Source: Patescibacteria group bacterium
GTDB taxonomy: Bacteria; Patescibacteriota; Patescibacteriia; Veblenbacterales; UBA10138
Reading direction: 5' to 3'
Assembly: GCA_043823825.1 (NCBI GenBank)
Contig: JBDRTU010000052.1
Coordinates: 1-44,588, forward strand
Length of the DNA stretch: 44,588 bases
The notes beneath the pieces are model-generated. The model was not told the DNA's origin and did not search any database. It saw only the letters and a program-made list of their open reading frames with translations. Every line of letters begins with the position of its first letter. Within the stretch, counting starts at the first letter, position 1. Positions 1,797-37,070 of this stretch are shown one piece after another. The position numbers and the translations under genes are program-made.

Positions 1797-2381
1797 TTAA
1801 AAATGTTTTAATTCATAACTACCTCTACTATCTCTAACTACTAACCTACCTTTAAATCGTTTGCATGCTTTATTTCTTTTTTTAAAAAATTTTATGGCTG
1901 CATTAGCTTCTTTTTCTTTCTCACCAAATACTTTTGAATATTTTTCTAGATACACAACCTTTTTAATACCGATACTATTAACAATATGCTTAGCACATTC
2001 AAGACAAGGAGATAAAGTAACAAATAAAGTAGAATTTGCTATACTTATACCAGCATCAGCTGCGTTAGTAATTGCATTCATTTCAGCATGAGAGCCAATG
2101 CAATTTTTACCCTCTTTCTTTTTACCATTATCATATCTGCATTTGCATCCAACTTTATCACAATGAGGAGCATCTCTTACTGGACCATTATAACCAGTTG
2201 AAAGTATAATAGGTTTTTTTTCTTTTCTTACCCTTGCTATTGCTGCTCCAATATTTGCCCATATACAATGAGCTCTCTCTGCTGCTGTTAATGCTATCTG
2301 CATAAAATACTCGTCCCATGTTGGAATATAATCTTTCTTAACTTTTTTCATTTTTACCTTTTTCTTTTTCTCTTTTTTCAT
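1797..2381 (-). CDS. dCMP deaminase / ComEB family
   Basis: WDEYFM, STGYNG, HAEMNAI and PCLECAK zinc-deaminase motifs; very AT-rich. Confidence 0.9.
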   Translation of the reverse strand: MKKEKKKKVKMKKVKKDYIPTWDEYFMQIALTAAERAHCIWANIGAAIARVRKEKKPIILSTGYNGPVRDAPHCDKVGCKCRYDNGKKKEGKNCIGSHAEMNAITNAADAGISIANSTLFVTLSPCLECAKHIVNSIGIKKVVYLEKYSKVFGEKEKEANAAIKFFKKRNKACKRFKGRLVVRDSRGSYELKHF

Positions 2382-2480
2382 TTTCTAGTTCTCCTTTTAT
2401 TTATATTGTTTTGTAAAAATACAAGCTTTGTTTAACGTTTAATATTATCTTTAATTTAATTTTATGTCAATTAAAGTAAT

Positions 2481-2508
2481 AAAAAATAGCTAAAATTAGC
2501 TATTTTTT
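2481..2508. terminator. AT-rich inverted repeat, probable terminator downstream of tRNA-His
   Basis: AAAAAATAGCTAA-AA-TTAGCTATTTTTT. Confidence 0.5.
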
Positions 2509-2511
2509 AAT

Positions 2512-2551
2512 TGGGTGGCTGTTGGGATTTGAACCCAAGCTAAAGGCTCCA
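2512..2551 (-). pseudogene. 3' half of a diverged tRNA-His-like gene
   Basis: Reverse complement TGGAGCCTTTAGC-TTGGG-TTCAAAT-CCCAA-CAGCCAC-CCA gives a T arm and acceptor 3' strand with no 5' half. Confidence 0.6.
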
Positions 2552-2597
2552 TTCAACCCGCCAATGGTTATAGTATAAATATAGAGAGATACAAGGG

Positions 2598-2669
2598 GGT
2601 GGCCAACGGGAATCGAACCCGTATCAGTGGCGCCACAGGCCACTGCTCTACCACTGAGCTATGGCCACC
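2598..2669 (-). tRNA. tRNA-His(GTG)
   Basis: Cloverleaf with anticodon stem GTGGC/GCCAC, loop CTGTGGC, G-1 and C discriminator. Confidence 0.95.
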
Positions 2670-2722
2670 ACTCTGAATCCCTCAACTAATAATTTTAGAG
2701 TCAACTGATATTAGCATAATTA

Positions 2723-3976
2723 TTATTTATATTCAAGCTCGCTTTCTAAACTGCTATCTAATACTGAAATCCAACTATTACCAGGTTGTAATGGTAGTGG
2801 CTGCTTTTGATTATTAATAAATATTGTACTACTGTTTAAAGATTTTCTTTGCCAGCTACCTTTATACACTTTGCCTTCGGTAAATAAATAAGCTGTGCCT
2901 TCACCTACTGTTTGAATATTAACTTTAAGCAGCGGGTCGTCGGGTAACGGAGTAATGGTAGTAAACATTGTTATCACATTTTTTGCCTGTAGCACGCCGC
3001 CCGTAGTACGATCCAAATGATCCTTGCCATCCATTAATCTAGTATAAACACCAGCAGCTTCTTGGTATTTCCACATTACATCATACTCTAGAGGAAAATA
3101 AGGAATAATTACTTCAGTTGCCGTAGCAATGGAATTAACAGAAGGAGAATCAGAAACTGTATACGGCCAAGATTCTAAAGAAGCTATAGTATTCCAACCG
3201 TGCCCTTTAGCATAATCGTAAAACCGTTCGGCAGAGGTATAAAGATTATGAGGTCGCGATTCTTTCTCCTCACGCCAAAAAGCATTTTCCTGCGCAAATT
3301 CATTAGCGTCCTGCAATCCCGTTACGCCACGAGCTAATTCTGACAAAGCTTCGGTTGAACCGCCGCTGTGCGCATAGAAAGCTCTGACTTCCCTTGCCCA
3401 ATCAGTAAAATAAGAACGCGCGCTCCTAACTGGACCAATTCTTAAAGGTAGCCCTTTTTGGAAAATAGCTAAAAATCTTGTTACCCCTCCTTCGGTTGGC
3501 GCCTCCCAGACCAGGTCGGCAAAAGATAAACCAGATTGCGGCCGCACACTTGGAAAATTTTCAATCACTACGGCCAAAGGTCTCCGCTCGATCACTTCCT
3601 GAGTTACTGCTTCACCAGTTAAAGCAGACACATATTTTTGTTGCTCTTCCTCATCAGGGGGTAATAATTGTAGATTACTATTTAAAGCAACAGTGCCAAA
3701 TTGAGATGAGCCACCTTCTTTTTTTAATACAACAACTGTTCCAATTAAAAGTACAATCACTAATAAACCAGCAAACCAAGCACTGTATTCTAAAAAACTA
3801 ATAGTAGACAGCCTCGCCGCTACTTGCTGAGGTCTTACTATTTTCACCTTACTGGCTCTGTCTTTAGTAACAATCGGAACTTTAATTTTCTTAAATGGCT
3901 TCTTACTCGTGGCTCCACGTTTAGCAACTTTCACTATAACTGTTTTTTTAGATTGAGCTGGTTTGTTTTTGGACAT
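2723..3976 (-). CDS. DUF3048-domain membrane-anchored protein
   Basis: One TM helix, then RPLAVVIEN, RPQSGL, EGGVTRF, GPVRSAR, HSGGS, PHNLY. Confidence 0.85.
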   Translation of the reverse strand: MSKNKPAQSKKTVIVKVAKRGATSKKPFKKIKVPIVTKDRASKVKIVRPQQVAARLSTISFLEYSAWFAGLLVIVLLIGTVVVLKKEGGSSQFGTVALNSNLQLLPPDEEEQQKYVSALTGEAVTQEVIERRPLAVVIENFPSVRPQSGLSFADLVWEAPTEGGVTRFLAIFQKGLPLRIGPVRSARSYFTDWAREVRAFYAHSGGSTEALSELARGVTGLQDANEFAQENAFWREEKESRPHNLYTSAERFYDYAKGHGWNTIASLESWPYTVSDSPSVNSIATATEVIIPYFPLEYDVMWKYQEAAGVYTRLMDGKDHLDRTTGGVLQAKNVITMFTTITPLPDDPLLKVNIQTVGEGTAYLFTEGKVYKGSWQRKSLNSSTIFINNQKQPLPLQPGNSWISVLDSSLESELEYK

Positions 3977-3994
3977 AATCCTCCTTAGATAAAA

Positions 3995-4321
3995 TTAATT
4001 TTTTAATTCTCCTTTAAACCATTTATAATAAGCGAGATTAACATTTGATATTTCTACCGTACCAATAAAGGGCACTTGGTCAGAATGTTTTGATTGTACC
4101 AATTTTTGTAACTTTTTTAAATGCTTAGGTAAAGTATCCATAACCAGCAAACAACCCTTGCCTCTTTCTATTTTTCCGGTTTTTGGTGGCCAAAAGAAAC
4201 GCGTCAGTAGGCGCGGAAAAATATTGTAACAAACCGTTAGTCTAGCTCTAAGCGAAATATCACCAATCCGCTTTGCCTCGGCAACAGAATTACAATTTAC
4301 TAACAGCCAAAGTAGTTTCAT
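3995..4321 (-). CDS. cutA: Divalent cation tolerance protein CutA-like
   Basis: EAKRIG...ARLTVCYNI, HSDQVPFI, YYKW; 108 aa. Confidence 0.75.
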   Translation of the reverse strand: MKLLWLLVNCNSVAEAKRIGDISLRARLTVCYNIFPRLLTRFFWPPKTGKIERGKGCLLVMDTLPKHLKKLQKLVQSKHSDQVPFIGTVEISNVNLAYYKWFKGELKN

Positions 4322-4944
4322 AAAGTCTTAATTAATTCAGGCAACTCTTTAAAGGATGAAATGCAGGCGTCGGCATTATCAAACTTTTTATGTGAGTAAA
4401 TTATTACTCTCATATCAGCGGCACGTGCTGTGACAATGTCATTTTCCACATCTCCTATATAAACACACTCATTAGGCCTTACTTCTAGTTTTCTAGCTGC
4501 CAATAAAAGTGGTTCGGGGTGCGGTTTGTGATTAACTGTATCTTGATAAGATACTGCTGCACCAAAATACTTTTTTAGTTCCTCTAAACTAGGGCCAACG
4601 AACATAGTCTCCGCTACCCGGCTAGTTACAATTCCTAATTTATATTTTTTTCTTAGAGCTTTTACTGCCTTAGCCGCGCCTATTGTCATGGTAGAGAAAC
4701 GAATGTAATATTGCCCCGCTAATCTTCTCCCCTCTTCCCACATTTTCATTATCTCCTGCTCATTAGTAGTTTTAGACAGAACTTTAATTGCATCGTATAA
4801 ATTGTAATGAAAAATCTGGCGATACTCTTCAGCCGTGGGCGGCTGGTAACCGTTCTTTTCCATCAAATCCTGAAAAAAATTCAAATTAGCTGGAAATGAA
4901 TCCATTACTACTCCATCAATATCAAAAATTACTGCTTTAATCAT
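4318..4944 (-). CDS. HAD-IA hydrolase (phosphoglycolate phosphatase-like)
   Basis: MIKAVIFDIDGV, KPHPEP, YIGDVENDI; start moved to the ATG at 4944. Confidence 0.9.
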   Translation of the reverse strand: MIKAVIFDIDGVVMDSFPANLNFFQDLMEKNGYQPPTAEEYRQIFHYNLYDAIKVLSKTTNEQEIMKMWEEGRRLAGQYYIRFSTMTIGAAKAVKALRKKYKLGIVTSRVAETMFVGPSLEELKKYFGAAVSYQDTVNHKPHPEPLLLAARKLEVRPNECVYIGDVENDIVTARAADMRVIIYSHKKFDNADACISSFKELPELIKTL

Positions 4945-4970
4945 AAATGTTAGTGGTACCCCGAAGGCCT

Positions 4971-4987
4971 GTCCGCCTCGGGCGGAC
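4971..4987. repeat. Short GC-rich palindrome GTCCGCC-NN-GGGCGGAC, copy 1
   Basis: Related copies at 34758-34774 and 40278-40294. Confidence 0.6.
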
Positions 4988-5023
4988 TTAGAAATCCGAG
5001 ATTCTATTTTACCCCACTCCACT

Positions 5024-5301
5024 TGCCCCCGAGAGGAATCGAACCTCTATTAGCGGCTCCCGCCTACGCTTAAGGCTTCGGTGGGCAAGTAGAAGTCCGC
5101 AGTTCCCCGCCTGCCATCACCTATGCCCTTGAGAGGAATCGAACCTCTATCAGCGGCTTAGAAGTCCGCGGTTCTATCCATTGAACTACAAGGGCACAGG
5201 GCATGGCGGGCAGATATCTATTATCCGCCTCCATATTTTAATATTACGGCGGATCCTCGCCGAAGCTTAAATAAATTAGCGGAGGCGGAAACTACGAGGG
5301 C
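5024..5301 (-). pseudogene. Outer tRNA-Arg(TCT) interrupted by three palindromic insertions
   Basis: Segments 5290-5301, 5215-5223, 5090-5105 and 5024-5058 join to a 72-nt tRNA that differs from the inner copy at 7 positions. Confidence 0.85.
5124..5195 (-). tRNA. tRNA-Arg(TCT), intact and nested in the interrupted copy
   Basis: GCCCTTGTAGTTCAATGGATAGAACCGCGGA-CTTCTAA-GCCGCTGATAGAGGTTCGATTCCTCTCAAGGGCA. Confidence 0.95.
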
Positions 5302-5418
5302 TAGCCGTAGTTAATTAACTAAACTCTACTACTTATCCCTATTTTAAGATAATTTGTCAACTATCGCCACACTTACAAACAAAATGGGTTAATGGCATAT
5401 AGAGCAGTAAATTGAAAA

Positions 5419-6720
5419 CTACCAAGGCAATATTAACCCATAAGTAGTTGGTGCGAGCAACAAAAACGAAATGACTACTATATAAAGATAGGCTGGCAGT
5501 AATCGTTTTTGCCAATAAGTGTTTCTAATACACCAATCTTTCACTGATGGCCAAATTAAAGGCACTAATAAATAACCAAATATCAACGCTGGAAAATAGT
5601 GATAAATAAAAAATACTCTATTAATAAAAAAGAAAGGTATATAACTTATAAAAAATGCCAGTAGTAATAGGGTCCGATTATCATCTCGCAATACACGATT
5701 AGTTAAAGAGAGAATGGACAAAAGTAACGCTACCACTAGAGCTATAATAACAGAAAACCAACCTACTGGATTACCCTGAACAATAATTGCACGGTCATTC
5801 TCAACTAATATTCCTAACTTTTTTTCACCAACCAGCCATTGTTGAGGTTGGCTGGAATTTGCATGTTCAGAATAATTACTGTTAGCTTTAAACATAGTTA
5901 CAAATAATGTTGGTAGATAACGCACAATACCTACCAAATCATTTCCCGGAGGATATTTCAGCCGTTCAGAAACAGTCTGAATTTTACCTAAACTAATCGG
6001 CGTCTTACTGTTAACTCCTCCGATAGAAGCAAAATAGATTACCCATATTGTTAGATGAATAAATAAAATAAATAACAATGCTAACGCAAATTCACGTAAT
6101 CGCTGTTGCCGCCATAACCACCAACCTAAAACTGCTATAAAACCCAAGGCGATCCATTTTACCGACAAAGCGCCGCCCAACAGCGCGGCTCCGCAGATGA
6201 ATAAGAGATATCTAATTTTTTTTGATCTTGCGCTCCCTCCTATTAAAAATAAAGCAAGGCCCCCGAAACCTAAGAAGAGTAACAAATTTTCTGGTAACAT
6301 TAATCTTGAATATACTACCAAAGAATTGTCCCAAATTACCAACCATGCAGCGATCACTGCCTGCCAAGTCGCCATTGAAAGAGCTCGTGCTATTAAATAA
6401 ACAGCTATCACTAATCCCGCTCCTAAAAATGCGTTCAATTGACGTGCAGTCTGATAAGGAAATTTATTAATGGTCTGGCTGGTATTCTCAATTTGTAAAG
6501 AAGGTTGATAAGATTTAACTGATACTGCATTTACTAATGAAGATAAGGGTGGATGCACTGTAAAGTAGGGTTGTTGGTGCAAGATATAAGTGGCAAAAGT
6601 TGCTTCTGTAGATTCATCAAATAAAGCTTGAGTAGGATATGATAATTTTGGTAATCGCAATAAAAGCGCCAGTAAAAAAAGACCGATTATGATTGTGTAA
6701 TCTTTTTTAGTCAACAACAT
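5419..6720 (-). CDS. Protein O-mannosyltransferase-like glycosyltransferase (PMT/GT39)
   Basis: Multi-TM; LFDE, VHPPL, SVKW, GNPVGW, RVFFIYHYFPAL. Confidence 0.85.
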   Translation of the reverse strand: MLLTKKDYTIIIGLFLLALLLRLPKLSYPTQALFDESTEATFATYILHQQPYFTVHPPLSSLVNAVSVKSYQPSLQIENTSQTINKFPYQTARQLNAFLGAGLVIAVYLIARALSMATWQAVIAAWLVIWDNSLVVYSRLMLPENLLLFLGFGGLALFLIGGSARSKKIRYLLFICGAALLGGALSVKWIALGFIAVLGWWLWRQQRLREFALALLFILFIHLTIWVIYFASIGGVNSKTPISLGKIQTVSERLKYPPGNDLVGIVRYLPTLFVTMFKANSNYSEHANSSQPQQWLVGEKKLGILVENDRAIIVQGNPVGWFSVIIALVVALLLSILSLTNRVLRDDNRTLLLLAFFISYIPFFFINRVFFIYHYFPALIFGYLLVPLIWPSVKDWCIRNTYWQKRLLPAYLYIVVISFLLLAPTTYGLILPW

Positions 6721-31697: not shown

Positions 31698-33023
31698 TTA
31701 ATTTACCTTATTCATCAACATTGGAATAGTTAGATGCTTTCGCACTGATTCACCTTTTATCCTATTTAATTTCCTTATTGGCATATCACCTCTAGCTTGT
31801 ACATGTTGTGGAGTTTTTTGAGCACTTAAACTTGCGGCTGAATATAAACAGTGTTTACCAAATTTGGCTGACATTTTATCTACAGCTTCATATAATCTTT
31901 TTAATTTTTCTATTCTGACAATCGGTTCAAATAATGTTCGCTGTAAACCTTCTAAAGGTATTAAGTTTGCCAACACTACGCCAGTAGCACGGTAAAAATT
32001 ACCGTGTTTAAATAATTGGCTAAATAAGCGATGTATAATGGTCATCATGTCTTGAGGAAAATTAGAGGCACGGTTTAGTTTGGCTTCAAGGCCGACAGTG
32101 CGGTAATTTTGTAGGCGTAAAATAATTATTAGATCTTGTGCCACTAAGTTGTGGCGACGCGCTTTAATACAAGCGTTTTCTAAATTTTTTACTAATTGCG
32201 CATAAACATAAGCCGGGCTATTTGATGGGGGTGTAAAAGTTTTAGTTTTGCTAATAGAAATATAATCGGTTTTTTCTTCTGGCGCGACATCATATACTGA
32301 ATGACCATTAAGCTCTTGCCACATCTCGTAGTGTGGTTTGGTAAAATGTTGTTTTATAAAATTTTCGTTTTTATTAACAAAATCCAGCGCGTTTTTTATA
32401 CCAAGTTTCAAACAATAAGCAGCTGTGCGTGGTCCTATGCCCCAAATTTTTTCAATAGGTGTTATTTTTAAATATTTATGTATTTCTCGCCCCGCAATAG
32501 CAGTAAAGCCTGATGGTTTTTTATATTTGGAGGCGATTTTGCAAAGCACTTTAGATAAACTAAGCCCAACTGAAACTGTAATTCCTAGTTCAGATTCTAT
32601 AGTTGCTTTTATTTTTTGAGCAATGATGGAGTAGGAACAGTGGAATGGCCGTTGTAGACCAGTTAAATCAGCAAAACCTTCATCAATTGAATATTCTTCC
32701 ACTTGCGAAGTAAATCGGCGCATAATAGAAAACAGGCGTTTGGAAAATAAACTGTAAGTTTCATAATCAGAAGGTAAAATAATAGCATTGGGACAAAGTT
32801 TTTTTACTTCCCATAGTGGTACGCCCCGACCAACCCCCTTAGCCTTAGCTTCATAACTAGCAGCTGCTACTATTCCCCTTTCTTTGCCAGTAATTACCGG
32901 GCGGCCGCGGTATTCTGGGTGTAAAGCTTGTTCGCAAGATGCAAAAAAAGCATCGCCGTCGACATGCAGAATTGCTCGCGGCCAGGATGAAATAGTTAGG
33001 GGTTTACTGGTTGACAAATTCAT
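31698..33023 (-). CDS. dinB: Y-family DNA polymerase (Pol IV / UmuC-like)
   Basis: HVDGDAFFASCE, ASYEAK, YSIDEG, IWGIG, UmuC-like C-terminal tail. Confidence 0.93.
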   Translation of the reverse strand: MNLSTSKPLTISSWPRAILHVDGDAFFASCEQALHPEYRGRPVITGKERGIVAAASYEAKAKGVGRGVPLWEVKKLCPNAIILPSDYETYSLFSKRLFSIMRRFTSQVEEYSIDEGFADLTGLQRPFHCSYSIIAQKIKATIESELGITVSVGLSLSKVLCKIASKYKKPSGFTAIAGREIHKYLKITPIEKIWGIGPRTAAYCLKLGIKNALDFVNKNENFIKQHFTKPHYEMWQELNGHSVYDVAPEEKTDYISISKTKTFTPPSNSPAYVYAQLVKNLENACIKARRHNLVAQDLIIILRLQNYRTVGLEAKLNRASNFPQDMMTIIHRLFSQLFKHGNFYRATGVVLANLIPLEGLQRTLFEPIVRIEKLKRLYEAVDKMSAKFGKHCLYSAASLSAQKTPQHVQARGDMPIRKLNRIKGESVRKHLTIPMLMNKVN

Positions 33024-33119: not shown

Positions 33120-33836
33120 ATGCTCATGAGCAAGAAGCATGAGATAACTCTGCCGGCCGAGCAGGCCAGCGAACTTATGGCCCCGATAGTATCGGTGGTC
33201 ATGAGTACACAACCCACAGATGCGCAGTACTGGATAAGCCGTAAACGCAAGTTTGAGGCCGAACTGCGCAACCTCATCTGTCGCGGTACCGTTCCCTTCG
33301 CCGATCTCATTGCCGAATGGGAAAAGTTTTATCTGGAGGTATTTGGACTGGATAAGAATTTTTCCAGTCTCCGTATTCCGAAACCGCAGGAAGGTTTCAG
33401 CCGTCCTATCATTGAGGCGGGTGAAATTACCAATAGCCGGGTTTTTGCCAAGTGTAAGGAATTATTTCCAGCCAGGAAGTACGCCGACAATCTGGACACT
33501 GTTACTAATATCACTCCGTGGACGCCTGGTGATCGCGCTTATTGGATCCGCGATCGGGTGGAGGCTGATGAAGAGCTGAAGAATATTTCGACCAACAATT
33601 TGGCTAACCAGAACATTGTCGGCATCACCTTGAAGGGTCGGCTTCTGTTTGAGGTCAAATATTTTAAGGAAACTGGCCAGCATCTGGATATCCAGAACAT
33701 TACACTCTGTTCCGGTTCCCGCGATGCCGCTGGTGATGTGCCGAGCGTGCGCTGGAACGACGACGAGCTGCACGTCGGTTGGACGAGTCCTGGCATTCAG
33801 GACGACCGCCTGCGTTCTCGTGCAGTAGTTTCGTAA
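33120..33836 (+). CDS. DGR target protein 1 (C-terminal variable region, probable C-type lectin fold)
   Basis: RBS TAAGGAG; last 40 codons match TR; paralogue of target 2 (WIRDRVEAD, YFKE.G.HLDIQ.ITLCSGSR). Confidence 0.93.
   Translation: MLMSKKHEITLPAEQASELMAPIVSVVMSTQPTDAQYWISRKRKFEAELRNLICRGTVPFADLIAEWEKFYLEVFGLDKNFSSLRIPKPQEGFSRPIIEAGEITNSRVFAKCKELFPARKYADNLDTVTNITPWTPGDRAYWIRDRVEADEELKNISTNNLANQNIVGITLKGRLLFEVKYFKETGQHLDIQNITLCSGSRDAAGDVPSVRWNDDELHVGWTSPGIQDDRLRSRAVVS
33714..33833 (+). repeat. DGR variable repeat VR1
   Basis: 120 nt, 17 mismatches to TR, all at TR adenines (11 G, 4 C, 2 T). Confidence 0.97.
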
Positions 33837-33908: not shown

Positions 33909-34640
33909 ATGGAAAAGTATGAGACAGTCCTGGTGTCAGCTTCGGTTGACCAAGTTAAAGATGTGGTCGCTACACTGTGCCAGGCCATCCCCAAAGGGAT
34001 GACGTCAAGTGATGCCCAGTCCATCAGCGGGAAGAAAGGCAAATTTATTGCCGATATCAGGCAGGTGTTTGCTAAGTACTCAACCGCTTCGGTGCTCGCA
34101 AGCGTCCTGTTGGAATGGCAGGATTTGTGGAAAGAGTTTGGTGTCTCTCTGGACTTATCAGAGCTCGTGATTCCGGAATGCCAGGAGGGCTTTGATCGCC
34201 TGTTGGTGATACCGCAAGGCATCGGTGCCGAGCGGGTATTCCAGAGGTGTAAATCCACTTTCGGTGCCTGGAAGTATACCGACTGTGGTCTGGATGAAGT
34301 AGTGCCGACCAATGACCGCACGAACATCAAGACCTACGAGGTTTGGATCCGCGATCGGGTGGAGGCTGATAAAGAATTGAAAAATATGTCAGCCAACACT
34401 TTGGCTCAAGCCAAGATTCTGGGGGTTACCCTACTTGAACGGCTCGTGTATGAGTGGAAGTATTTCAAGGAGTCGGGTAAGCACCTGGACATTCAGAAAA
34501 TCACGCTGTGTTCCGGTTCCCGCGATGCCGATGGTAATGTGCCGTGCGTGTACTGGCTCGGCGGCAAGCTGCGCGTCCATTGGGCGCCTCCTGGCTATCA
34601 GTTCGACAGCCTGCGTTCTCGTGCAGCAGTTTCTCTTTAA
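33909..34640 (+). CDS. DGR target protein 2
   Basis: RBS AAAGGA; C-terminal VR2; paralogue of target 1. Confidence 0.93.
   Translation: MEKYETVLVSASVDQVKDVVATLCQAIPKGMTSSDAQSISGKKGKFIADIRQVFAKYSTASVLASVLLEWQDLWKEFGVSLDLSELVIPECQEGFDRLLVIPQGIGAERVFQRCKSTFGAWKYTDCGLDEVVPTNDRTNIKTYEVWIRDRVEADKELKNMSANTLAQAKILGVTLLERLVYEWKYFKESGKHLDIQKITLCSGSRDADGNVPCVYWLGGKLRVHWAPPGYQFDSLRSRAAVSL
34515..34633 (+). repeat. DGR variable repeat VR2
   Basis: 119 nt, 20 mismatches to TR, all at TR adenines (8 G, 6 C, 6 T). Confidence 0.97.
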
Positions 34641-34693
34641 ACTTAATTCTTTTTTCCTTTTTCAAAATCACGAAGAAAGGAGAAGAATTTATC

Positions 34694-34730
34694 CCCCAAG
34701 TTGTGCGGAGTACAACTTGGGGATTTTTTT
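34694..34730 (+). terminator. Hairpin with GGA loop and T-run downstream of VR2 (terminator and/or DGR homing stem-loop)
   Basis: CCCCAAGTTGTGC-GGA-GTACAACTTGGGG-ATTTTTTT. Confidence 0.75.
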
Positions 34731-34935
34731 ATATAATTAATATGGCTACTACAATCGGTCCGCCTTGGGTGGATAGCGGTTTGCCAACATAACGAAACTG
34801 CTTACTTTGTTCTAGAGAATATTTCTATAATAATTTTATAGGATGCTTCTAAACACAGCCCGCCGACGGCGGGATAACTCAAGTAACTTTGTAAAAGGTT
34901 GCTGGCGAATATGGACGGGGCAAGGTAATAAAACG

Positions 34936-35055
34936 GGTTCCCGCAATGCCGATGGTAATGTGCCGAACGTGAACTGGAACGACGACAAGCTGAACGTCAA
35001 TTGGACGAATCCTGACAATCAGAACGACAACCTGCGTTCTCGTGCAGAAGTTTCG
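34936..35055 (+). ncRNA. DGR template repeat (TR)
   Basis: 120 nt, 34 adenines, 11 AAY codons in the target frame; identical to both VRs at non-A positions over the aligned length. Confidence 0.97.
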
Positions 35056-35056
35056 G

Positions 35057-35091
35057 AAAAACACCTGGTCTTAATTAGGCTTGGTGTTTTT
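35057..35091. terminator. Hairpin between TR and the 3' end of avd (bidirectional terminator or DGR spacer structure)
   Basis: AAAAACACC...GGTGTTTTT. Confidence 0.6.
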
Positions 35092-35478
35092 ATTTACTAT
35101 TATTAAGGTACTTTATCCAACCATTAGTCATTTTAGAAAGATTTTGTAGGTCGGTTTCCATGTCCAAATAGGTTTTACTTTCTACAATGTGTAAATTGTT
35201 ACTTAGACGAATTAATCTTTTTAAAATTTCTAATTTTATTCGCAGTGTTTTAAGCGGGGCATTTTTTTGGCTTCCAGATTCAAATGATGCAGTAATACAT
35301 AATTCTATAGTTTCTAGACAGATATTTTCAATTTTTAAGTATATTCCATAATGGTCGCGCTTCGTCATTTTTGGTCCCAACTGGTAAACTGTTTGGTAGA
35401 AAGTTGTTAGTTTATGCACCAAAGGCACGTCAAAAGTGTCGGGGGGGGGGGGGGCGATACTGGAAAAGTTTTGGTCAT
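35090..35478 (-). CDS. avd: Avd-like accessory four-helix-bundle protein; ATG at 35478 out of frame at C14 (currently open only from GTG 35428)
   Basis: DVPLVHKLTTFY, KRDHYGIYLKIEN, LEILKRLIRL, GWIKYL; lies between TR and RT. Confidence 0.85.
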
Positions 35479-36483
35479 AATATTTTTGAAAAAATAATTA
35501 ATTTAGAAAATTTGTTTTTAGCTTGGCGAGAGTTTAGGCGCGGTAAACGAAGTAAATTAGATGTACAGAAGTTTGAATTTAAGTTAGAAGACAATTTATT
35601 TACTATTCATGATCAGTTGGCCAGTGGGATTTATGTAAATAACCCCTATGTTTCTTTTTATATTACCGATCCGAAATTGCGGCATATTCATAAAGCTAGT
35701 GTTAGGGATAGAGTAATAAATCAGGCGGTATTTCGTGTGTTATATCCTATTTTTGATAAAGTTTTTGCATATGATTCGTATTCTTGTCGGGATAATAAGG
35801 GGTTACACAAAGCAGTTGATAGATTAGAGTTATTTTTAAGGCGCGTTAGTCGAAATTATCAAGAGCCAGTTTGGGTGCTTAAATGCGATGTTAAGAAATT
35901 TTTTGATTCTGTTGATCAGGAGCGATTATTTGGCTTTATTTGTAAAAGATTATTTGACAGACGAGCGTTGGATTTGGTTGAGAGAATAATTAGTAGTTTT
36001 TCTGTTAGTGCTGGTAAGGGGTTGCCGCTAGGAAACGTTACCAGCCAGTTGTTCGCCAACATTTATTTGAATGAACTGGACCAGTTTATCAAACACCAGT
36101 TAAGGGTAAAATATTATTTGCGGTATTGTGACGATTTTATTATTTTAGATAATGGTAAAAAATATTTATCTGGATTAATTGATAAGATTAACGAGTTTTT
36201 AAAGAATAATTTAGAGCTGGAATTACATCCAAGAAAAATTATCATTAGAAAATACCGGCAAGGTATAGATTATTTGGGTTATGTTTGTTTGCCACATTAT
36301 CGGGTGCCGCGCACCAAAACTAAACGGCGGATATTAAGGGTATTGGTGGGGAAAAGTTATTTAGTTAAACAGGGGCGTTTTAGTCAAACGATTTTTTATA
36401 GCTCTCTCCAATCTTATTTTGGAGTTTTAAAACATTGTCGAGGGTTTAAGGTTAAGCAGCAGATTTTATCAGTAATTAAATAG
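35414..36483 (+). CDS. DGR reverse transcriptase; ATG at 35414 out of frame at G14 (currently open only from non-ATG starts such as TTG 35371/35404)
   Basis: RDRV, KCDVKKFFDSV, GLPLGNVTSQLFAN, YCDD, IDYLGY; no in-frame Met anywhere in the ORF. Confidence 0.95.
35441..35454. repeat. G14 homopolymer inside the avd/RT overlap
   Basis: 14 consecutive G in an AT-rich genome. Confidence 0.95.
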
Positions 36484-36485
36484 CA

Positions 36486-37070
36486 TTATTTATATTTTCT
36501 AATAACCGCGGTTACTACGCCGGCGATTTTTAGTTCTTCTTTGGCTGTGACTATATGAAATCTTTTATTAGCCGGCACCAACACCACTTGTCCGCCGCGT
36601 TTTTCAAAATATTTTATAGTCCATTCCCTATCAACTTCAGCTACAACAATGTCGCCATGTCTTGGTTCACGGCCGCGCTCTAAAATCACCATATCTCCGG
36701 GTTGAATACCAGCATCAATCATAGAATCACCCGTTACTTTTAGCATAAAACTAGCTTCTTTATTTCTTATTAACCAATCATCAAGCGACAGAGTATCTAC
36801 CATTTCTTCTTCAGCCGGGCTGGGGAAACCAGCTTGAATAGTACCGAGTAGTTTTAACGGCAATAGTCGTTTCCCAGGTAGTAGCTTACCTAAATAATCT
36901 TTTTTCGCCCAACCAAAAGAAAACCATTTTTGGGCCAAACGCTGAGCCGCAAACTTGGATTTGAATTTACAAAAATTTGCTATCTCAGTATAACTAGGCA
37001 TGCGCTGGTTTTGCCCATAAAATTTTTGTAGCTTTTCTAAATATAGATTGTTATTAGGTGGTCGTCCCAT
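36486..37070 (-). CDS. lexA: LexA/UmuD family S24 autopeptidase with N-terminal HTH
   Basis: MPSYTEIA, IQAGFPSPA (Ala-Gly cleavage site), VTGDSMIDAGI, TIKYF. Confidence 0.9.
   Translation of the reverse strand: MGRPPNNNLYLEKLQKFYGQNQRMPSYTEIANFCKFKSKFAAQRLAQKWFSFGWAKKDYLGKLLPGKRLLPLKLLGTIQAGFPSPAEEEMVDTLSLDDWLIRNKEASFMLKVTGDSMIDAGIQPGDMVILERGREPRHGDIVVAEVDREWTIKYFEKRGGQVVLVPANKRFHIVTAKEELKIAGVVTAVIRKYK

Follow-up and report, generated by a model that had tools for sequence, protein, structure and literature searches.

A poly-G tract in the overlapping 5′ ends of RT and avd as a possible slippage gate on a DGR in a Patescibacteria group bacterium

Using a combination of frame analysis at one locus and a survey of homologous loci in related genomes and metagenome contigs, we describe here a run of 14 G (G14) at the junction of the divergent RT and avd genes of a complete DGR. 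We lean modestly towards the view, built on comparison of sequences, that this tract is a hypermutable repeat in the overlapping 5′ ends of RT and Avd, through whose slippage the DGR machinery would be gated. The window, by which we mean the whole stretch of DNA that was analysed, comprises the 44,588 nucleotides of contig JBDRTU010000052.1 from a Patescibacteria group bacterium (assembly GCA_043823825.1). Simple repeats of several kinds occupy the homologous junction in many relatives, and the phase and start codons of RT and Avd differ markedly between loci with and without them.

Results

A complete DGR in the window

Open reading frames, a repeat search and Pfam profiles together delineate a complete DGR in the window, consisting of two target genes, a template repeat (TR), avd and RT. 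Its features, and those of the avd/RT junction, are the following.

33120 to 33836, + strand: DGR target gene 1, from its open reading frame; contains VR1 at 33714 to 33836 (repeat family D2)
33909 to 34640, + strand: DGR target gene 2, a paralogue of target gene 1, from its open reading frame; contains VR2 at 34515 to 34637
34936 to 35058, + strand: TR, from its repeat match to the VRs; A-rich, with 36 A in 123 bases
35090 to 35428, − strand: avd core, read from GTG 35428 and matched by Pfam bAvd at E 1e-11 (above the cut-off); the complete gene probably begins at ATG 35478 when the tract length is in phase
35414 to 35416, + strand: candidate RT start ATG, out of frame at G14 and in frame at G12 or G15; antisense to an Avd His codon
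35441 to 35454, + strand: G14 homopolymer, a slippery repeat (C14 on the avd strand), from the sequence and from homologous repeats in relatives
35455 to 36483, + strand: RT core; Pfam RVT_1, E 3.5e-24, within the open reading frame 35371 to 36483
35476 to 35478, − strand: candidate Avd start ATG (CAT on the + strand); antisense to an RT N-terminal His codon

Of the mismatches between TR and the VRs, 17 of 18 for VR1 and 22 of 24 for VR2 (39 of 42 for both VRs together) are at TR adenines, and TR lies about 400 nt upstream of the RT gene. Residues 3–107 of the Avd that begins at GTG 35428 match positions 3–106 of the bAvd profile. The gene order is TR-(avd)-RT, in which avd separates TR from RT and is encoded on the opposite strand, and this is DGR architecture B3. 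A first-pass annotation of the sequence had called the locus a DGR, and the RVT_1 and bAvd matches, together with the TR/VR mismatches at TR adenines, bear this out.

The cassette is flanked on one side by a gene for a Y-family polymerase (UmuC/DinB-like, IMS; 31698–33023, − strand) and on the other by a gene for a LexA/UmuD-like S24 peptidase (36486–37070, − strand), and the two resemble an SOS-type mutagenesis pair with the DGR lodged between its members.

Two facing ATGs are out of frame at G14

At the tract the sequence consists of a c, 14 G and another c. From ATG 35414 on the + strand, the frame at G14 reads MHQRHVKSVGGGGGDTGKVLVIIFLKK and ends at an early TAA, and from ATG 35478 on the − strand it reads MTKTFPVSPPPPPTLLTCLWCIN and likewise ends at an early TAA. 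Beyond the tract the RT frame continues as ...GGGGRYWKSFGHNIFEKII..., and the Avd frame from GTG 35428 opens with MPLVHKL.... Addition of one G or loss of two (G15 or G12) connects both ATG frames to RT and Avd when the frames are compared by hand. Two ATGs facing each other across the tract, both running into early TAA stops at G14 and both joined to RT and Avd at G12 or G15, were what the first-pass annotation had described; translation confirms the first of these statements and frame comparison the second.

It was equally right that RT has no in-frame ATG and that Avd has only a GTG. The RT open reading frame (35371–36483, 370 codons) contains no in-frame methionine codon, and Avd at G14 retains GTG 35428, which gives the full bAvd match. 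At G14 there are nonetheless in-frame TTGs for RT, at 35371 and 35404, to which no weight had been given earlier, and GTG 35436 enters the RT frame at G13 or G16. That in-frame TTGs for RT and the GTG for Avd are usable at G14 counts against a strict OFF state. Each ATG had also been said to lie opposite a CAT of the other gene. This arrangement is indeed seen, but conserved His codons explain it, and by itself it is no evidence for starts: the facing ATGs would be kept anyway, because they are antisense to those codons.

The tract is exceptional in a genome without detected MutS or MutL

G14 is the sole G/C run of at least 8 bases in the window and the longest in the 889,506-base genome (38.7% GC), where it is followed by one G9 and then by eight runs of G7 or C7; a run of 14 lies far beyond chance. 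The G9, the second-longest G/C run, lies at the avd/RT junction of the second complete DGR of the genome, on contig C36 (locus L136), which has these features.

2217 to 6094: second complete DGR, with avd on the − strand
4068 to 4201: VR of its target
4565 to 4698: TR
5018 to 6094: RT

Here too TR adenines are the site of the TR/VR mismatches (16 of 16). The junction, at about 5084–5114, has a repeat composed of (GA)6-7, G9 and (AG)4, its GA part being the longest dinucleotide repeat in the genome, and RT and avd are both in frame, with their ATGs on the far sides of the repeat.

Searches of the 97%-complete genome (G000) for the MutS_V and MutL (DNA_mis_repair) families gave no match; they did match in 11 of 14 control genomes. 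With no MutS or MutL found, such tracts would be expected to be unstable.

Simple repeats recur at homologous avd/RT junctions

RT homologues were gathered from 61 related genomes and 80 metagenome contigs. Once loci truncated at contig ends, loci where no avd could be detected alongside, and duplicate junctions had been removed, there were 92 non-redundant loci, which, being related, are not statistically independent, a limit that applies to every locus count and p value given here. Wherever avd was detected beside RT, it was divergent from it. The search for homologous junction tracts that the first-pass annotation had suggested returned a simple repeat at the junction in 60 of the 92 loci, of varying length and with other repeat types in place of the tract in some; the types are G7–G14, (GA)n, (GT)n and (TGTCC)n, with G runs, read on the RT strand, making up nearly all cases. 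Across 67 loci, duplicates included, G9 occurs 26 times, G10 18 times, G11 11 times, G7 seven times, G8 four times and G14 once, and loci added beyond those 67 have G13, G11, G10, G9 and G8. The tract of the window is the longest among all loci examined.

At the same junction site, L117 carries (GA)11.5, L093 (GT)7 and L079 (TGTCC)7. Such variety of repeat types at one site suggests that instability is what is selected, rather than any G-specific motif. A function particular to G runs, such as a ribosome-binding stretch or a quadruplex, was considered and given less weight, since GA, GT and TGTCC repeats fill the same site. RT is an uninterrupted match in every repeat-bearing locus except L108, and these are thus not decaying genes. 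The junction repeat occurs in none of 15 related RT loci on viral contigs and is absent from the phage-borne relatives sampled.

Among the 32 loci without a junction repeat, 8 carry a repeat inside RT, in the loop before the GLPxGN motif and about 555–570 nt into the gene; intra-RT repeats were found only in loci of this kind. The repeat is in frame in L011 (G9), L083 ((GA)11) and L097 ((AG)10), and in 5 of the 8 it splits RT into two frames: L101 (G9), L102 (G12), L103 ((GA)9), L105 ((AG)9) and L106 (G9).

Two further loci show insertions. In L067, about 105 extra GC-rich bases lie between a G10 tract and the conserved RT start, and L104 (G058:C5) combines a G13 junction tract with a GC-rich palindromic insertion at the RT loop where other lineages have a repeat.

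Start codons and phase depend on the presence of the repeat

Repeat-free and repeat-bearing loci differ sharply in the start codons available to the two genes.

RT with an in-frame ATG: 31 of 32 repeat-free loci, 16 of 60 repeat-bearing loci
Avd with an in-frame ATG: 30 of 32 repeat-free loci, 11 of 60 repeat-bearing loci
Both genes with an in-frame ATG: 29 of 32 repeat-free loci, 7 of 60 repeat-bearing loci
RT without a canonical in-frame start: 0 of 32 repeat-free loci, 19 of 60 repeat-bearing loci
Avd without a canonical in-frame start: 1 of 32 repeat-free loci, 28 of 60 repeat-bearing loci

Fisher p values for the in-frame ATG contrasts range from about 1e-11 to 1e-12. In repeat-free loci the two ATGs either lie back to back, as CATATG or a few bases apart, or face each other so that the genes overlap in codon alignment, with each ATG opposite a His codon. 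Facing-ATG overlaps measure 6 nt in L063, 9 in L097, 18 in L083, 51 in both L055 and L062 and 69 in L004, the last of which has a degenerate G-rich stretch in place of the tract. Two of these loci, L004 and L062, are members of the same sub-group as the window, and in them exactly the homologous two facing ATGs are in frame. The gene model put forward in the first-pass annotation, with facing ATGs, overlapping codon-aligned 5′ ends and the tract within both frames, thus finds backing in L004, L055, L062, L063, L083 and L097.

By phase we mean how many bases would have to be inserted to bring the RT and Avd frames into codon alignment. Phases 0, 1 and 2 occur in 24, 5 and 3 of the repeat-free loci and in 8, 22 and 30 of the repeat loci, so that 52 of 60 repeat loci are out of phase. 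The depletion of phase 0 in repeat loci (8 of 60, against 24 of 32 in repeat-free loci) has a Fisher p of 5e-9, the repeat-locus counts depart from uniform with a chi-square p of 0.002, and the phase contrast survives clustering of the RTs at 95, 85 or 75% identity. Dependence on length modulo 3 argues that the tract is translated, since it is hard to explain otherwise and would not be expected of an untranslated element. The direction of the bias means that most assembled consensus alleles, including that of the window, are out of phase.

Not every locus conforms to the gene model of the window's sub-group. In L012 the ATGs of both genes flank the tract, which is there intergenic, and in about 10 loci (L007, L012, L014, L016, L018, L020, L108, L112 and L115 among them) an ATG for RT lies 13–21 nt downstream of the tract. 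The earlier claim that one tract controls both RT and Avd therefore holds in part: it fits the gene model of the window's sub-group, but in another sub-group RT has its own downstream ATG and only Avd could be affected. The comparison supports a gate that would act on both genes in the sub-group of the window, on Avd alone in loci with a downstream RT ATG, and on RT alone in loci with an intra-RT repeat.

We also considered a TTG or GTG at the 5′ border of the tract as a general start for RT. Such a codon is present in 20 loci and in frame in 9 of them, which is not clearly more than one third, and the candidate was set aside.

Loci such as L012 invite the alternative that the tract is an untranslated regulatory element, be it a promoter spacer, a 5′-UTR or a ribosome-binding stretch, with RT initiated from TTG or another non-canonical codon, Avd initiated from GTG 35428, and tract length tuning transcription or initiation. 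The position of the L012 ATGs outside the tract agrees with this, as do the downstream RT ATGs of the loci listed above, which often follow a purine-rich stretch; the bAvd profile match begins at the GTG-initiated N-terminus, and −10-like hexamers, as read by eye, often lie downstream of the tract. A precedent is the (TA)n promoter repeat of hifA/hifB, where a single repeat serves two divergent genes, as described in PMC2651432. Yet a phase bias modulo 3, and in-frame ATGs that are lost in repeat loci only, are at odds with an untranslated tract, and in repeat-free relatives the frames that open at facing ATGs run through the homologous segment. The intra-RT repeats of other lineages are, moreover, plainly translational, and tract lengths from 7 to 14 are ill-suited to a fixed −35/−10 spacing. 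A promoter consensus scan over 1 kb, which is crude and uses a consensus that may not be that of the host, gave 3 sites against 2.8 in shuffled sequence, and hence no excess, with none at 35430–35470. A terminator scan found nothing at the tract, and an Rfam search of 34600–35800 at E up to 1 returned 4 weak matches far below gathering scores, none of them at the tract. We regard an untranslated element as unlikely, and a translated repeat as the better reading of these data.

Slippage in DNA, in RNA or in sequencing

A translated tract could also be stably out of frame in the DNA, with the frame restored in RNA by polymerase slippage or on GGG/CCC by ribosomal frameshifting; cells would then make RT and Avd at a constant low level and would not alternate between ON and OFF. 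The dominance of out-of-phase alleles (52 of 60) and the intactness of the RT genes suit this explanation. Polymerase slippage becomes efficient at around the length of the RNA:DNA hybrid, in the G9–G10 range, and the modal tract lengths of G9–G10 equal the hybrid length in transcription. Tract length also appears steady: among related loci, 8 of 8 contig pairs with identical 150-nt flanks have equal tract lengths, which indicates that the most frequent allele does not change from one of those samples to another, although several of the pairs come from the same sample series and do not represent independent populations. Between relatives at 80–88% RT identity the length does differ, with G10 in L002 and G11 in L003, and with G11 in L026 and G9 in L029, L034 and L091.

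No single programmed shift fits, however, since the two out-of-phase classes, with 22 and 30 loci, are each well represented. Measured by what is expected of programmed transcriptional slippage, the lengths are mostly 9–11, yet both shifted classes and non-homopolymer repeats are present; tracts are as short as G7, and the di- and pentanucleotide junction repeats and the intra-RT (GA)n repeats are typical of slippage by DNA polymerase and not by RNA polymerase. We consider restoration in RNA improbable, to about the same degree as an untranslated element. Phase variation at the level of DNA fits best, because the repeat types are so varied.

Tract length was checked in Logan contigs, in which run X1, possibly the source sample, contains the locus at depth, runs X2 and X3 contain only fragments outside the tract, and run X4 (RNA) has almost nothing of it. 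No contig of X1 bridges G14. Contigs break there, at 35452–35455, the left one stopping after 12 G and the right one starting at 35455 and running into 25 letters of wrong base, a complementary homopolymer, which most likely arose in sequencing through a difficult G run. G14 might be a length miscall, the true allele being G15 (or G12), with both genes in frame, carrying poly-Gly and poly-Pro tails, and no switching. The break in X1 after 12 G leaves room for this, the 25 wrong letters can be interpreted as what a two-colour dark-cycle artefact would give, and no locus has a longer tract. Against it, 52 of 60 related loci are out of phase at shorter lengths that are easier to sequence (G7–G11), and the contig pairs agree in 8 of 8 cases. 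A miscall would alter the state of this locus and leave its architecture as it is; we think it the least probable of the three alternatives.

Discussion

In the proposed mechanism, RT would be read from ATG 35414 through poly-Gly codons and Avd from ATG 35478 through poly-Pro codons, and with the two frames codon-aligned, one tract length (modulo 3) would open both genes while the other two would break both. Slippage would most likely occur during DNA replication, in a genome in which MutS and MutL were not detected, and would gate the production of full-length RT and Avd and hence mutagenic retrohoming. The assembled G14 allele would be one base out of phase. The proposal further supposes that slippage proceeds at a useful rate and that out-of-phase alleles are functionally OFF or low, in which case mostly-OFF populations could lock in selected VR variants. 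Only 13% of loci are in phase, which is less than simple unselected switching predicts, and the mechanism needs the extra assumption of selection for OFF.

The arrangement shares several properties with the poly-G/C contingency loci of Campylobacter, Neisseria and Haemophilus: a G/C run of at least 7 near the 5′ end, the length of which modulo 3 would decide the reading, a host apparently without mismatch repair, and both frameshifted and in-frame alleles among relatives. The occurrence of different repeat classes at one locus in different strains, described for contingency loci in PMC2651432, is another point in common. In contrast to these loci, the gene that would be switched here belongs to the machinery of a second diversity generator and does not encode a surface structure, and one tract would lie in two genes on opposite strands. 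The hosts differ as well, being small-genome groundwater bacteria here and host-adapted pathogens there. In Haemophilus influenzae, again according to PMC2651432, one (TA)n lies between hifA and hifB, two cooperating divergent fimbrial genes. That repeat is intergenic, in a region of more than 100 bp, and acts on promoter spacing, whereas the DGR tract apparently lies within both coding regions and would act on frame.

Phasevarions, in which DNA methyltransferases are phase-variable, offer a further parallel, in that a repeat-switched enzyme changes many downstream phenotypes between its ON and OFF states. There the effect runs through methylation-dependent expression, while the DGR of the window would alter how fast two receptor-like genes undergo targeted hypermutation. 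According to Wu et al. 2018 (PMC5758913), architecture B3, TR-(avd)-RT, makes up 90% of that study's CPR set, and the DGR of the window shares this gene order, with avd on the strand opposite to RT, with CPR DGRs. The passages of that paper that were searched mention neither a repeat where avd and RT meet nor phase variation. The first-pass annotation knew of no description of the arrangement, and in the literature searched we found no prior description of an avd/RT junction repeat or of phase-variable DGR genes.

For annotation the finding carries a warning, since many such RT and avd genes would be mis-started or called broken. If the proposed mechanism is true, it would be a rare case of one repeat exerting translational control over two genes from opposite strands. 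The tract allele and the VR haplotypes lie 0.8–1.7 kb apart on the same molecule, which makes the proposal directly testable with existing long-read metagenomes.

The proposal would bear on what keeps DGR activity in check; adenine mutagenesis left to run freely would erase whatever useful variants it produces. A repeat-length gate on RT and Avd would, if real, be a simple restraint that can be read from genomes and is conserved over many uncultured lineages. We tentatively suggest, at a likelihood we place just short of even, that across a large clade of groundwater bacteria with small genomes the DGR would itself be a contingency locus, by way of a repeat at the avd/RT overlap or within RT that switches hypermutation stochastically, and that most cells would be OFF, freezing the receptor variant that had been selected, with the occasional ON cell exploring new ones, in a two-tier form of bet-hedging.
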